Source of the DNA: an uncultured delta proteobacterium
Lineage (GTDB): Bacteria > Desulfobacterota > WTBG01 > CAIYCZ01
Length of the DNA: 64,000 bases
Assembly (NCBI GenBank): GCA_963803975.1
Contig: CAWDOY010000031.1
Span: 1 to 64,000 of the forward strand
Direction of reading: 5' to 3'
Shown here: one piece after another, positions 42,178 through 48,008 of the stretch
Position numbering within the stretch: the first letter of the stretch is position 1
Layout of the letters: every line of letters starts with the position of its first letter
Program-made: the position numbers and the translations under genes
Notes under the pieces: model-generated
The model's database searches: none
What the model saw: the letters and a program-made list of their open reading frames with translations, nothing else
Told to the model about the DNA's origin: nothing

Positions 42178-43164
42178 TTATTTTTTTGTCCTCAAGACCC
42201 GGGCAATATCTTCCACCAATTCCTTTGAACCAACGTAGAGAGCCGTTCTCTGGTGATGTGTCTCCGGTTGAATCTCGAGAATCGGAATTCCCGCTTCATT
42301 GACAGCTGTTCCACCCGCTTCGCGGCACATAAAAGCTACCACCGCGCCTTCGTACATGAGGCGCAGCTTTCCCTCCGGACGGTTCTTTTTTGGGTTTGGG
42401 TGATTGACGATGGCCGGGTACATGAACATGCCGCCGTTTGATAGGATCCTGTGAACATCTCCGGCTAAGGCACCGAGGTACCTGAAGGCATACTTGCTTT
42501 CATGCTCCGTGATCCATCTTTGAACTTTTTCAGCATAGGTGAGGCGGTTGCCTGCATTGAACGATAATTCCCAAGTCCTGGTCTCCTCGGGGAGGACCAT
42601 TCGAGTCGGCCTGACAAAAGTCATCGTCTCATCGATGTGGAACCGCCAGGTCCCCGCACCTCTCAGTCCAAACGTGAACGTCCCGGTTGGAATCACAAAC
42701 ATGCCGGCTGCGATAAAATCTTTTCCAGCCCTCAGGTGGCCGTCCTCAGGGCCTTCCAGATTGCGCTTTGCAATCCCGAATAGAAAACCAACCGGCAGCC
42801 CGTGGGGAATATTCGATGAGCCATCCAGGGGGTCAAAATAGATAAAATAGCGCCCATCAGGATTAATAGAGATGATCTCGTCCGATTCCTCGCTGACCGC
42901 ATGAATGACCCGTCCCGAAGCCCTCAAGTAATGGATCGTGATTTCATGCGCGATCTGATCCATACGCATGACGTCCTCACCCTGCACATTGACCTCGCCT
43001 GCCAATCCGAGATTTCCTTTCAGGGCACTGGTCAGATAATAGTACTGGATATGCTTTGCCGCGCTGATCATTGCATCCATGAGGATCAGGAAATGGTAGG
43101 TGCGGTTATACTTCTCCTGATGCTGGATAAGAAAATTCATAAAGGTTTGCTCAAATCGGATCAT
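42178..43164 (-). CDS. fbp: Fructose-1,6-bisphosphatase class 1
   Basis: NVQGE, SEE, FDPLDGSSN, RYLGALAGDVHR, GKLRLMYE. Confidence 0.92.
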   Translation of the reverse strand: MIRFEQTFMNFLIQHQEKYNRTYHFLILMDAMISAAKHIQYYYLTSALKGNLGLAGEVNVQGEDVMRMDQIAHEITIHYLRASGRVIHAVSEESDEIISINPDGRYFIYFDPLDGSSNIPHGLPVGFLFGIAKRNLEGPEDGHLRAGKDFIAAGMFVIPTGTFTFGLRGAGTWRFHIDETMTFVRPTRMVLPEETRTWELSFNAGNRLTYAEKVQRWITEHESKYAFRYLGALAGDVHRILSNGGMFMYPAIVNHPNPKKNRPEGKLRLMYEGAVVAFMCREAGGTAVNEAGIPILEIQPETHHQRTALYVGSKELVEDIARVLRTKK

Positions 43165-43476
43165 TCGATCCCCCTTCTTCTATGCATTCAATGCTTGAGG
43201 GTTTTTATTGTATTCCAAAACAGGCGCAGAAACGCCATGGAAGCCAGCTCTGTATGCTGTGCTCGTAATCTTACCTGGTTTCGTTTTATCGTTAACGTGG
43301 ATTGTCGCGTATTGGATATCTCATATCATTTTAGTTAAAACACTTCAACCGCTTCATCACCAGAAGACATTCAATAACAGTAAAATTCCTGCGGCATATT
43401 TGCACGGCATGTGCTCTAACTGTAAAAGTGACGCTAATAAAACTATACATCTCTGAAACCACAGGGAGGAACTGCT

Positions 43477-44186
43477 ATGGAAGATAGTGCACTGGTTCAG
43501 CGGGCGTACACTGCTGTTATTGAGCACTTTATAAAGACCGGCCGGGCGCCGCACTTTACCGAGCTTGCCGCCATACTTGGTGTGCAGCCCGAGGAGGCCC
43601 GGCATCTGCAGCATAAGGCCGCTGACGCATCTCTTCGCCTGCTGGTTTGTTAAAGACACGGATTACGTCGAGTCCTGGGCGCCGTTTTCCAATGTACCGA
43701 CCCATTATCTTGATCACCATAAACGGTGTACAGAAGTGGTACGGACAGTGAGGACTCGAAGCGCTGGCCGTGCGCTGGCTCTTCCCCGGTACAGAGGTCC
43801 GTATCGATACCCGCTGTCTTGATTGCGGGCAGCCGATTTTCGTCCGCATGAGAGACGATGAAATCCTGGAAGTCAACCCGGCGACGACCGTGGGACATGT
43901 GAATATCCCGTTTGCCCGGGTTTTAACGGGAGAAGTAACCTGGGGCCAGGCTTGAAGCCGCATGAACCTCTTCCGGTCGGAAGAGCATGTGAAAAGCTGT
44001 CCCAGGTATGATTCCATCTCAGCTGAGTCCATCATGCCGCTGTCCAGCTGGGCGCAGGCCTTCAGCGGGCCCCTGCACAGGAATCGCCTGGAGCCGGACT
44101 ATCTATCCCGCGTGCAGGACTACGCATCCGAAATGTTTCTATTGTTAAAAAAGCTGGGCAAGGCAGGTCCTTTCTGGACCCCGTAA
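43477..44186 (+). CDS. MerB (organomercurial lyase)-like protein with two in-frame UGA codons, putative double selenoprotein; two +1 indels in the 5' half
   Basis: RBS GGAGG-ATG 43477; PFSNVPTHY; KWYGQ-UGA(43749)-GLEAL; RCLDCGQPI; GQA-UGA(43953)-SRMNLFRSEEHV; both UGAs share a frame through to the stop at 44186. Confidence 0.75.
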
Positions 44187-44212
44187 AGAATTCAGGACAA
44201 TTGTAATTAACA

Positions 44213-44242
44213 AAAAAACGGGGACTTCGGTCCCCTTTTTTA
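44213..44242 (+). terminator. Intrinsic terminator
   Basis: GGGGAC-TTCG-GTCCCC followed by a T run. Confidence 0.75.
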
Positions 44243-44390
44243 TTTGCAGAGGCAGTCTTATTTCCCTCTTAAACAGCACCGGGCGATGTGTTATACATAC
44301 AGGTAAATTTAAGACGGCTTCTGCTGTATTATAACTTTCTGTTATAGGTATCCCCATCACCACATCAACATCCATCAAAGAGGAGGGAAC

Positions 44391-45159
44391 GTGAAAACAC
44401 ATAATGAAAACGGCAACATTACTGTCGCGGCAATTATTGCAGGATTGTGTCTGCTCATCGGGCTTGCCCTTGGCGGGTACTTTATCGGCCTGGGTGGTGC
44501 CCGCTTTAAATCCGATATCCGGACCGTTACGGTCAAGGGACTGGTGGAAAAAGAGGTTAAGGCGGACCAGGCGATCTGGACGCTTCGCTTCAGGAGGGCA
44601 AGCGAAGACCTGAAAGACGCCCACGACCAGGATCGTTTCCGACCGGGACGCTGCAATCGCTTTCCTCAAGAATCAGGGATTCAAGGATGAGGAGATAGGC
44701 CGCCAGCCCACGCGCACGATTGACAAACTCGCCCGCGAGTATGGTCAATCCCAGGGAACCGAACCAATGCGTTATCTTGTCACCGCTGCTCTTGTCGTGA
44801 CCACCCCGAACGTCGACCTCGTGACCAAAGCCGTGGGTGCGACTGAAGAGCTTCTCAAGTCCGGGGTAATCCTGGACGGCCAGCAGGAGGGCGGCACTGC
44901 CAATCCCCGTTATACCGTCACGACCTTTAACGCCCTCAGGCCGCAGCTGCTCGCCGACGCCACGAAGAATGCGCGCATGACGGCGCAGCAGTTTGCCGCT
45001 GATTCCGGCGCGCAGGTCGGCAGGATTCGTTCTGCCAACCAGGGTGCGATCCAGATTTTCGGCAGCGACGGAAACGATGAGTCTGCCCCCTACAGCCCGA
45101 CCAGTACGCCGATGAAGAAAATACGGGTTGTCAGCACGTTTGAATTTGAACTGAGGTAA
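44391..45159 (+). CDS. SIMPL (DUF541) protein (frameshift)
   Basis: RTVTVKGLVEKEVKAD; ATKNAR..AQQFAADSG; KKIRVVST. Confidence 0.85.
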
Positions 45160-45292
45160 CTGCAACCAGATACCGATGCTGAAAAAGGGAAACTATGAAC
45201 CACAGACCACGGAGAAATACTCTGTGTTCCCGATTACTATCGGGACTGTGGTTAATTCGACAATACTTCATTACCCAAAGGGATGGTGCAAC

Positions 45293-45914
45293 ATGAATAA
45301 TTCTACGTTCAAAGAAATTACCGCTTCAATCGCTGTTCTGCTGGCAGCGACATGCTGGCTGTTTGCCGGCGCAGCCCGTGCGGAGGGCCCCTCGTTTGAC
45401 TGCGGCAAAGTGGAGGCCGGCAGCATCGAAGAGATGGTCTGCAAGGACAAGGGGCTGGCAGCGCTGGACCGCAAACTTGCCGAAGTATATGCTGCGGCTG
45501 CTAAAAAAGCGGTGAACGAGCATCCGCCCGTGCTCAAGGCAGAGCAGCGCGGCTGGATCAAGGGGCGAAACGACTGCTGGAAGAGCGCTGACCGGCGCAA
45601 ATGTGTCGCGGACAATTATCGCTCTTCGCATTACTGAACTGCAGGCGAAGTATCGTCTGGTTCCGGCCACCGGTCCCGTCACCTGGGCCTGCGACGGCGA
45701 TCCGAAAAACGAGGTAGTCGTCACCTTTTTCAAGACTGATCCGCCGACACTGATCGCGGAGCGCGGCGACCAGGTGTCGCTGATGTACCTCCAGCCGGCC
45801 GCCAGCGGCGCCAGATACCAGGGCCCGAACGAATCTTTTTGGGAACACCAGGGTGAAGCCACCATAACGTGGGGGTACGGCGCCCCGGAGATGCGCTGTA
45901 CGAAAAAGCGCTGA
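45293..45914 (+). CDS. LprI-MliC lysozyme inhibitor-like protein (frameshift)
   Basis: PSFDC...EEMVC...LKAEQRGWIKGRNDC; AASGARY...FWEHQGEA. Confidence 0.85.
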
Positions 45915-46103
45915 GAGCGGGATGGATAGGAAGAAGAGGCATAGAGGACGATTAAAAAATATGGACAGCAAGCTCTCTATTTTAGCGATAAAGACCGGAT
46001 CCTGTGCTCTCGAACGCTGCGAAGCCATTTTCATTGACACGCAATCGCTCTCTGCCTATACTGCCCCCATCTCGAAAGCGAGTCCCTGTACATCAATCCG
46101 GAT

Positions 46104-46739
46104 ATGGAGAGTTTTCTGGAGCAGCTGTTTAACACCGCAGTATCATTTGCCGATAACCCTTTCGCATTTTTCACTTTTTTATTTCTTGCCGGGTTCGCAA
46201 ACTTCTTTTTCCCGATTGTCCCGATAGAATTAGTCACCGTGTTTTGCGGATACCTTGTTTCGCAGGGGCACAGCTCGCTTGTGCCGGTAATAGCAGCCCC
46301 AACGCTCGGCATGTTCGCGGGAAGCGTTATTTGTTACCGTATTGCGCGATACTTTGGCGCTCCGATACTGAAAAAACCTTTCTTTGCCCGTTATATCACC
46401 GATGATGCGTTAGCCCGCACCAGGCACTGGCTTGAAAAATACGGGGCAGTGTCGCTGTTCTTCTCAAAGTTCGTTCCGGGCGTATATTTATGCGCCGTGG
46501 TTTCAAGCGGCATCCTTGCCCTGAAGGAAACCAGGATATATACGGCGTTCCTGCTTGCAAACCTTGCGCTCTTTATGCTGCTTGCTTTTATCGGAAAGAT
46601 CGGCGGCGAACGATGGCGCGAGGTTTATGCCGCTGTCGGAAAAACAGGCGCACTGGTGATTATCTCGACTCTGCTTCTGTTCATGTTTATTTCTATCGCA
46701 GTGAAAGTAACCCGCAAAATAAAGCAAAAAAGCCCCTGA
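46104..46739 (+). CDS. DedA family membrane protein
   Basis: FFPIVPIE, YG..SLFFSKFVPG, TM pattern. Confidence 0.8.
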   Translation: MESFLEQLFNTAVSFADNPFAFFTFLFLAGFANFFFPIVPIELVTVFCGYLVSQGHSSLVPVIAAPTLGMFAGSVICYRIARYFGAPILKKPFFARYITDDALARTRHWLEKYGAVSLFFSKFVPGVYLCAVVSSGILALKETRIYTAFLLANLALFMLLAFIGKIGGERWREVYAAVGKTGALVIISTLLLFMFISIAVKVTRKIKQKSP

Positions 46740-46961: not shown

Positions 46962-48008
46962 ATGACAAAAAAGGATAAAATACAGCTCACGCATTTTTCC
47001 CACAAGGCCGGGTGAGCGTCAAAACTTGGTCCAGGGGTCCTGGACAACATATTATGCGGGCTGCCGCTGGTGAAAAATCCTAACCTCATCGTGGGGCTTG
47101 AAAACCCGGATGACGCGGGTGTGTATAAACTGACTGACGATATCGCCATCGTGCAGACGGTTGATTTTTTCACGCCCATTGTTGACGACCCGTTTACCTT
47201 CGGCCAGATCGCGGCAGCCAATTCCCTGAGCGATATTTATGCCATGGGCGGAAAACCCGTCACCGCGATGAACATCGTATCGTTCCCGCTGAATAAACTT
47301 GATATAGGCATCCTCAAGGATATCCTGCGCGGCGGTCTGGAAAAGCTTAAGGAAGCTGACGTGGTGCTGGTCGGCGGGCACAGCATTGACGACCCGGAGC
47401 TGAAATACGGGCTTTCAGTCACCGGAATTATTCATCCGCAGAAGGTTCTGGCCAAGCAGGGCGCGCAGGCCGGCGATGTCCTTATCCTGACGAAGCCGCT
47501 CGGCACGGGAATTATCTCTACTGCCCTGAAAGGTGAAACGGCAAGTGCGGCCGCGGTGAAGAAGATGGTTGCAAGCATGACCACCTTGAACCGCAAAGCA
47601 GCGGAAATCATACAGGACATCGGCGTGCATGCCTGCACGGATATAACCGGCTTCGGCCTTATCGGCCATGCGTATGAGATGGCGAAGGCAGGGGGTTGCG
47701 CTTTCTGTTTTAACAGCGCAGCAGTTCCGGTATTTCCTGAGGCCCTTGAATATGCCCGCATGGGGCTGGTGCCGGGCGGCAGTCATTCCAATCGCAGCTT
47801 TTATGAACCGTTTGTTGAATACCGCGAGGCAGTGAGCGATGAGCTGCGCGATATCCTCTACGATCCCCAGACATCAGGCGGGTTGCTTTTTTCTGTTGCG
47901 GAAAATAAAAAGGATGCCCTGCTGAAAAAGTTTAGAAAGGAAAAAGTTGACGCTTTCGTGGTGGGCAGGGTGGAAAATAAGCCGAAGGGCAGAATTATAA
48001 TAGAGTAA
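46962..48008 (+). CDS. selD: Selenide, water dikinase with Sec at codon 18
   Basis: MTKKDKIQLTHFSHKAG-UGA(47013)-ASKLGP in frame with DDAGVY, QTVDFFTPIVDDP, DPQTSGGLL. Confidence 0.95.
47029..47045 (+). promoter_or_regulatory. SECIS-like hairpin of selD
   Basis: GTCCAGG-GGT-CCTGGAC, loop about 20 nt after the UGA. Confidence 0.65.

Follow-up and report, generated by a model that had tools for sequence, protein, structure and literature searches.

A MerB-fold protein family with two predicted selenocysteines at the catalytic cysteine positions

Introduction

Can a stretch of DNA that is interrupted by two UGA codons, each at the position of a catalytic cysteine of the organomercurial lyase MerB, encode a single selenoprotein? 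This question is raised by positions 43477..44186 (+) of the 64,000-nucleotide stretch from an uncultured delta proteobacterium that we analyzed here (the window). In MerB, two cysteines bind R-Hg and Asp99, which is essential, protonates the carbon (PMC10114901). In the sources covered here, the MerB-like selenoproteins named in print are the SaoL proteins, which carry a single selenocysteine (Sec) in a CU motif (bioRxiv 10.1101/2022.07.06.499078, Haft and Gwadz; PMC13188914; PMC9312934). The role of MerB-like proteins without MerA is described as an open question (PMC8261052), as are the enzymes that degrade methylmercury in anaerobes (PMC10114901).

Results

One gene spread over three reading frames

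The sequence from ATG 43477 to TAA 44186 on the forward strand reads as one MerB-fold protein spread over three frames. Intact homologues have 235 codons; the gene contains two Sec codons and, in the assembly, two extra bases. The original prediction had joined the small ORFs 43565-43822, 43770-43955, and 43962-44186 into one protein; all three are present at these coordinates as parts of it, and a fourth small ORF, 43477-43653, carries the true N-terminus. Reading the sequence confirmed that TGA 43749 and TGA 43953 share a single frame, with the flanking residues quoted for them. The last 159 codons (43707-44183) are open except for these two TGA, and no further TGA precedes TAA 44184-44186. 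A Shine-Dalgarno-like sequence, GGGAGG, lies 7 nt upstream of the ATG (43464..43469, +), and a hairpin with a T run that matches the consensus of an intrinsic terminator follows the stop (44220..44243, +). With these elements on either side, the gene looks like a separate transcript, which suggests a putative one-gene unit between the divergent FBPase gene and the SIMPL gene. One RNA-library contig spans 44012-44130 with one difference, and its depth of 2.7 is insufficient to demonstrate expression.

The two extra bases are very probably assembly errors

We compared the gene with two independent intact homologues, L001 and L024. Relative to both, it contains exactly two extra bases, in agreement with the +1 indels originally placed at about 43635 and 43712. 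The first (43632..43636, +, exact place ambiguous) is absent from L001, L024, and contigs of runs X1 and X2; the second (43710..43713, +, likewise ambiguous) is absent from L001, L024, and a contig of run X2. L024, a metagenome locus, is intact and 96% identical over 3.3 kb. L001, from genome G018, matches window positions 42969-46110 at 93% nucleotide identity over 3.2 kb. G018 is placed in another family of the order, and a same-genus genome has no match to the gene; this likeness across families may reflect either recent transfer or mis-binning.

As a test for frameshifts, we aligned proteins from 415 kb of a same-family genome to the assembly. Among the well-covered conserved genes, 29 of 203 were frameshifted, rpoB included, compared with 1 of 232 in the reverse test. 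This corresponded to 39 frame events in 72,565 codons, or roughly one every 5.6 kb of conserved coding sequence, and 8 of the 29 shifted genes carried two or more events. Essential genes split in the source assembly were rpoB and tuf on contig C16 and selA on contig C20. We also observed one extra base at about 44627 in the SIMPL (DUF541) gene (window 44391-45159), which is intact in L001 and L024.

We conclude that the two extra bases in the MerB-like gene are very probably assembly errors. It is improbable that the source copy is instead a recent pseudogene with genuine extra bases, in a family that is itself real. The two shifts do lie within 80 nt of each other, and the genome-wide rate gives a Poisson p of 0.007 for two events within 710 nt, although errors tend to cluster. 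Broken copies occur elsewhere (L036 and L121), in some database proteins the Sec sites are occupied by Ser, Gly, or Val, and we found no contig of at least 99% identity spanning either indel, although contigs of related strains lack both extra bases. Against a pseudogene, however, both TGA codons, both hairpins, the triad, the start, and the terminator are all intact, the frameshift rate of the assembly affects conserved genes, essential ones included, and the adjoining SIMPL gene has a similar +1. Because of the assembly errors, the source copy is a poor template, and L024 and L001 serve as its intact near-twins.

In-frame UGA is confined to two catalytic columns

We read 90 loci of the family, comprising nine from GTDB contigs, the best 80 of 540 metagenome relatives, and one further locus; the best-80 choice favours close relatives, and some of the 90 are duplicates. 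Whether homologues carry Cys or TGA at the two sites was thereby answered: 82 of the 90 had TGA at both, and five had TGC or TGT at site 1 with TGA at site 2. Two more ran off the contig edge after the site-1 TGA, and one (L036) was broken. Searches of 401 genomes of the phylum and related searches added 32 loci, two of which repeat earlier ones; 31 were TGA/TGA and one (L121) was broken. Some match was present in 54 of the 401 genomes, and 37, besides the source genome, had a near-full-length match at E < 1e-50. The site-1 TGA was present in all 45 near-full-length matches from these genomes.

Across the 25,518 codons of the 90 loci there were 171 in-frame TGA, all on the two catalytic columns, alongside 737 TGG. 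The UGA columns correspond to Cys in relatives: site 1 is TGC or TGT in the five loci above, and both sites are Cys in MerB and in the outgroup loci. The family thus has a conserved UGA with homology on both flanks and no other in-frame TGA, the pattern by which selenoproteins are recognized.

The same data bear on the readings in which the UGAs are true stops, so that a split gene yields three peptides, or encode Trp. Such readings could draw on the ATG that lies two codons past the second TGA (43953), and on the database entries of the family, which are pieces of 90, 158, 61, or about 74 residues or W/W read-throughs. However, the stops never leave the two catalytic columns, SECIS-type hairpins lie behind them, relatives have Cys there, and one compact fold extends across both. 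Furthermore, the source genome has tRNA-Trp(CCA) besides tRNA-Sec(TCA), and the off-site TGA count is 0 against 737 TGG. We therefore rejected both readings as extremely unlikely.

A SECIS-type hairpin behind each UGA

Hairpin 1, GCTGGC-CGTGC-GCTGGC (43763..43779, +), has a 6-bp stem and a 5-nt loop with G in second place, the loop lying 17 nt after the first UGA. In 73 distinct TGA-bearing sequences, 437 of 438 stem cells were paired, with G-U changing to A-U and G-C and one two-sided change, and the G at the second loop place was present in all 73. The first UGA had originally been given a weaker AGCGC/GCGCT stem. We rejected this candidate, in which only 297 of 365 cells were paired; the conserved stem is GCTGGC/GCTGGC, and with nearly every cell paired it is not weak.

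Hairpin 2, CTCTTCC-GGTC-GGAAGAG (43968..43985, +), is as originally described, with a 7-bp stem and a GGTC loop 19 nt after the second UGA, and it resembles the hairpin of selD (loop GGT, 20 nt). In 54 distinct sequences, 321 of 324 stem cells were paired. The 45 nt behind each UGA gave −13.4 kcal/mol for the first and −17.2 kcal/mol for the second. The bSECIS consensus stated in PMC13188914 places the loop 16-37 nt past the UGA, with G in the first two loop places and an MFE of −7.5 or lower, and both predicted hairpins fit it.

As the hairpins sit inside coding sequence, we also examined codon choice at synonymous positions across 81 distinct genes. For the eight fourfold or sixfold columns in the hairpins, the commonest codon reached a share of 0.88-1.0 in seven and 0.53 in the eighth, compared with an average of 0.50 and a maximum of 0.75 for 54 such columns outside them. 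Among 73 Sec forms, 72 kept the complete first stem together with the loop G, against one of five forms with Cys at site 1. These results indicate that each UGA has its own predicted SECIS-type hairpin.

The source genome encodes Sec machinery

A check of the source genome for selA, selB, and selC recovered all three, in the form of selA (split by a frameshift in the assembly), selB, and tRNA-Sec(TCA), as well as selD. Co-occurrence with selA was uninformative, with selA in 377 of the 401 phylum genomes and in 35 of the 37 carriers; the other two carriers have selB. The selD gene lies in the window at 46962..48008 (+) and also encodes a selenoprotein: TGA 47013 is in frame and is followed by the GGT-loop hairpin. 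It is not a conserved neighbour, and its closeness to the MerB-like gene is not a pattern in other loci. Two 95-nt tRNA-Cys(GCA) calls were also observed in the source genome (G000, C42:2679-2773 and C56:5188-5282), besides a normal 76-nt one. In length they resemble the selC*-type tRNA-Cys of deltaproteobacteria.

Predicted MerB fold and active site

We utilized an intact homologue to check the family against the MerB HMM, and L001 passed Pfam MerB (PF03243) with 63 bits against a cut-off of 27. A profile of 68 relatives aligned to MerB2 (5C17) with an E-value of 1.7e-23 and the triad in register, and to E. coli MerB with about 1e-10. In this alignment, residue 91 corresponds to Cys96, Glu94 to Asp99, Cys113 to Cys117, and residue 159 to Cys159, which places both TGA on the catalytic cysteines named in the original prediction. 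The substitution of Glu for Asp99, also foreseen there, was found in all 42 rows of alignment A4 that derive from loci, and the whole catalytic triad was invariant in these rows. Taken together with the frame reading and the family codon counts, the alignment leaves us almost certain that this predicted MerB-like protein carries Sec91 (TGA, 43749..43751, +), Glu94 (43758..43760, +), and Sec159 (TGA, 43953..43955, +) where MerB has Cys96, Asp99, and Cys159.

AlphaFold predicted the structure of L024, with Sec modelled as Cys, at a pLDDT of 96.8. Foldseek returned 11 significant matches for this model, all of them MerB chains, and the model aligned to MerB with Z 17.4 over 193 residues, compared with 4.4 for the next unrelated entry. 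The expected MerB fold is thus predicted for the family, as one compact unit across both UGAs. The N-terminal winged-helix part weakly resembles LexA/MntR (Z about 4), and Cys55 is present in 36 of the 42 rows. The extra CxxC noted earlier is present as Cys113-x-x-Cys116 (43815..43826, +), but it is not special: its first Cys is the structural MerB Cys117, and CxxC also occurs in the three SaoL proteins and other MerB-like proteins that we fetched, so it is no marker of the two-Sec family.

SelB is almost certain to read each UGA as Sec, aided by the hairpin directly behind it, and the predicted product is a 235-residue cytoplasmic protein of the MerB fold. By analogy with MerB, we propose the following mechanism for this protein. 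Its two selenolates would grip the soft metal or metalloid in an organometallic compound, so that its bond to carbon is weakened, and the carbon would receive a proton from Glu94. Since the selenols would already be deprotonated, this proton would have to come from water via Glu94 and not from residue 159. Without a mer operon, the metal would pass to small thiols or sulfide, and for the same reason the substrate need not be methylmercury. We lean, somewhat beyond even chances, towards such a MerB-like action, that is, a Se/Se/Glu lyase acting on some organometal or organometalloid. The metal-carbon or Se-carbon cleavage that was originally suggested is likewise a proposed chemistry, and a fold shared with MerB at 16-21% identity by itself shows no function.

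Distribution and phylogeny of the family

The two-Sec family was found in 37 of the 401 phylum genomes, against three with a SaoL match over the cut-off, and records of the family also occur in Actinomycetota and Nitrospirota. In a quick, unrooted maximum-likelihood tree of 66 rows, from which canonical MerB rows were left out, the Sec/Sec proteins formed one clade (SH-aLRT 100) on a long stem, separate from SaoL. The Cys/Sec forms and four Cys/Cys proteins (P0016 and P0102-P0104, known as database proteins only, without DNA) were scattered within this clade of the quick tree, which suggests that Sec may have been lost repeatedly, most often at site 1. In eight further database proteins (P0005, P0011, P0012, P0245, P0255, P0256, P0285, and P0286), site 1 is Ser or Gly, and at site 2 there is Cys, Val, a stop, or a short insertion. 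These close relatives are full length with eroded active sites and are perhaps escapes from Sec dependence.

Other MerB-like arrangements also appeared. L149 (genome G146, − strand) is a distant MerB-like locus whose catalytic positions are both TGA (reverse-complement offsets 1563 and 1782) and whose Asp99 position is Gly. Because it falls outside the Sec/Sec clade, on a long branch, the putative double-Sec design may have arisen twice. L135 (G401) and L140 (G076) are MerB-like loci that have Cys and Asp at site 1. In both, the only TGA is at site 2, where it lacks the CU motif and is followed by a hairpin; neither locus passed the SaoL search.

Neighbourhood, domain fusions, and mercury genes

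The neighbours at the source locus are FBPase, SIMPL, LprI-like, DedA/VTT, and selD genes, and not the nine-gene SAO set. We clustered 1,019 ORFs taken from 60 longer loci and found no conserved neighbourhood beyond close relatives; the largest cluster covered five loci. Among the 116 of 165 flanking ORFs tested with Pfam, no mercury- or metal-resistance gene recurred. The lack of mer context stated originally extended beyond the window: no merA scored over the cut-off in the source genome, none occurred among the 116 flanking ORFs, and merA passed its cut-off in only two of 38 carriers. The mercury-methylation gene hgcA exceeded its cut-off in 20 of 37 carriers and in 100 of 363 other genomes (p 0.002; kin are not independent), but this excess vanished in genomes of at least 3.8 Mb (19 of 32 vs. 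32 of 71, p 0.21, by hand tally and with the same dependence among kin). hgcA was not found in the source genome, and we rejected a link to mercury methylation as unsupported.

The protein stands alone in 63 of the 90 loci, a set that includes the best 80 of the 540 metagenome relatives. In the same set, a class III cyclase domain is joined to the protein in 22 loci and an AAA-type domain in five, and 24 of these 27 fused loci have both TGA. Selenolates would bind metal faster and tighter than thiolates, give no proton, and release metal less readily. The rarity of merA in carriers makes product release hard to explain for a lyase, and Se-Hg bonds would make it harder still. Together with the signalling fusions, these properties keep another role in play, in which the Se/Se site binds without turnover and acts as a high-affinity trap, a chaperone, or a sensor of Hg(II), Cu(I), Ag(I), or As(III), either alone or as the input domain of a cyclase or AAA protein. 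The weak LexA/MntR likeness of the N-terminus points the same way, and the D99S variant of MerB binds Cu (PMC10114901). Nevertheless, the acid residue is invariant in 42 of 42 rows, which a pure trap would not need, and most loci encode the protein without a fusion. We regard this role as possible but clearly the less probable one.

The upstream ORF is a Redoxin-family gene in L111, L113, and L117, which come from three genomes of a single family, and L130 has a DsrE gene upstream and an ArsR gene downstream. The Redoxin and DsrE neighbours could fit a function in redox or selenium transfer, where the MerB fold is reused for a reversible Sec91-Sec159 diselenide or as a Se/S carrier, with Cys55 and the CxxC as a possible relay. 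Most selenoproteins are redox enzymes, according to PMC13188914. However, Redoxin and DsrE neighbours account for only four of the 116 flanking ORFs, three of them from one family, and the triad spacing and pocket of MerB are kept. This function therefore appears quite unlikely, and a MerB-like lyase action continues to be the reading that we favour.

Discussion

Overall, sequence analysis indicates that the predicted two-Sec protein is a real, widespread variant of the MerB fold that is neither SaoL nor MerB proper. None of the findings originally named as refuting the prediction turned up. The family is apparently uncatalogued. We found no two-Sec MerB-like protein in the freely available literature searched, PMC12013277 included, and none among the 119 families in Table 1 of PMC13188914; NCBIfam (June 2026) has no model for it. 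The finding adds to the bacterial selenoproteome a widespread family that is over ten times as frequent as SaoL in the 401 genomes.

Gene callers split the two-Sec gene into three pieces, and NCBI names some of these pieces 'organomercurial lyase', so surveys of merB both miss and miscount the family. The family also offers a natural experiment on the MerB mechanism, with both thiols replaced by selenols and Asp by Glu, and another on two SECIS elements within one coding frame. It is a testable candidate for the role of MerB-like proteins without MerA and for methylmercury degradation in anaerobes. A more far-reaching proposal, which we consider doubtful, is that the Se/Se/Glu family acts in anaerobic sediment bacteria as a lyase of organomercury (methylmercury) that does not depend on MerA, with the cyclase and AAA fusions sensing organometals at the same site. 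If this were true, about 9% of the species of the phylum would carry a lyase missed by every merB survey, since its catalytic residues are read as stops, and the family would be a candidate catalyst for demethylation in anoxic settings.

SaoL (NF040728) shares with the two-Sec family the MerB fold (PF03243), Sec at the MerB Cys159 position, the CxxC at the Cys117 position, an occurrence in anaerobes, mostly truncated database entries, and a function that is predicted in both. SaoL has only one Sec, which sits in a CU motif; its other triad residues are Cys and Asp, and its gene belongs to a nine-gene SAO locus. The two-Sec family, in contrast, has two Sec, A-U-S in place of CU at site 2, Glu for Asp, and no conserved neighbours. 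An identity as SaoL was rejected, with 42.1 bits against the NF040728 cut-off of 140, no CU motif, a separate clade, and no SAO neighbourhood. SaoB and SaoC were not found in the source genome, in searches run without a positive control.

MerB (EC 4.99.1.2; NF033555, PRK13239; PDB 3F0O and 1S6L) and Bacillus MerB2 (5C17) have the whole predicted fold in common with the family (Z 16-17 over about 190 residues), with the triad positions and Cys117 in register. In the two-Sec family, however, Sec replaces both Cys and Glu replaces Asp99; Cys160 is missing, the C-terminus is about 30 residues longer, identity to MerB is only 16-21%, cyclase and AAA fusions occur, and there is no mer operon. An identity as MerB proper was likewise rejected: the MerB signature is Cys96, Asp99, Cys117, and Cys159 (PMC8261052) and the family has Sec, Glu, Cys, and Sec instead, the mer context is absent, and the NCBIfam MerB models gave 22.5 of 200 bits (NF033555) and 24.8 of 193 bits (NF009710). 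Finally, the bacterial proteins MbdU (NF045648), MduS, and the FmdB-family UxxU proteins likewise have two in-frame UGAs, and some of them are proposed metal binders (PMC13188914); these proteins adopt folds other than MerB.
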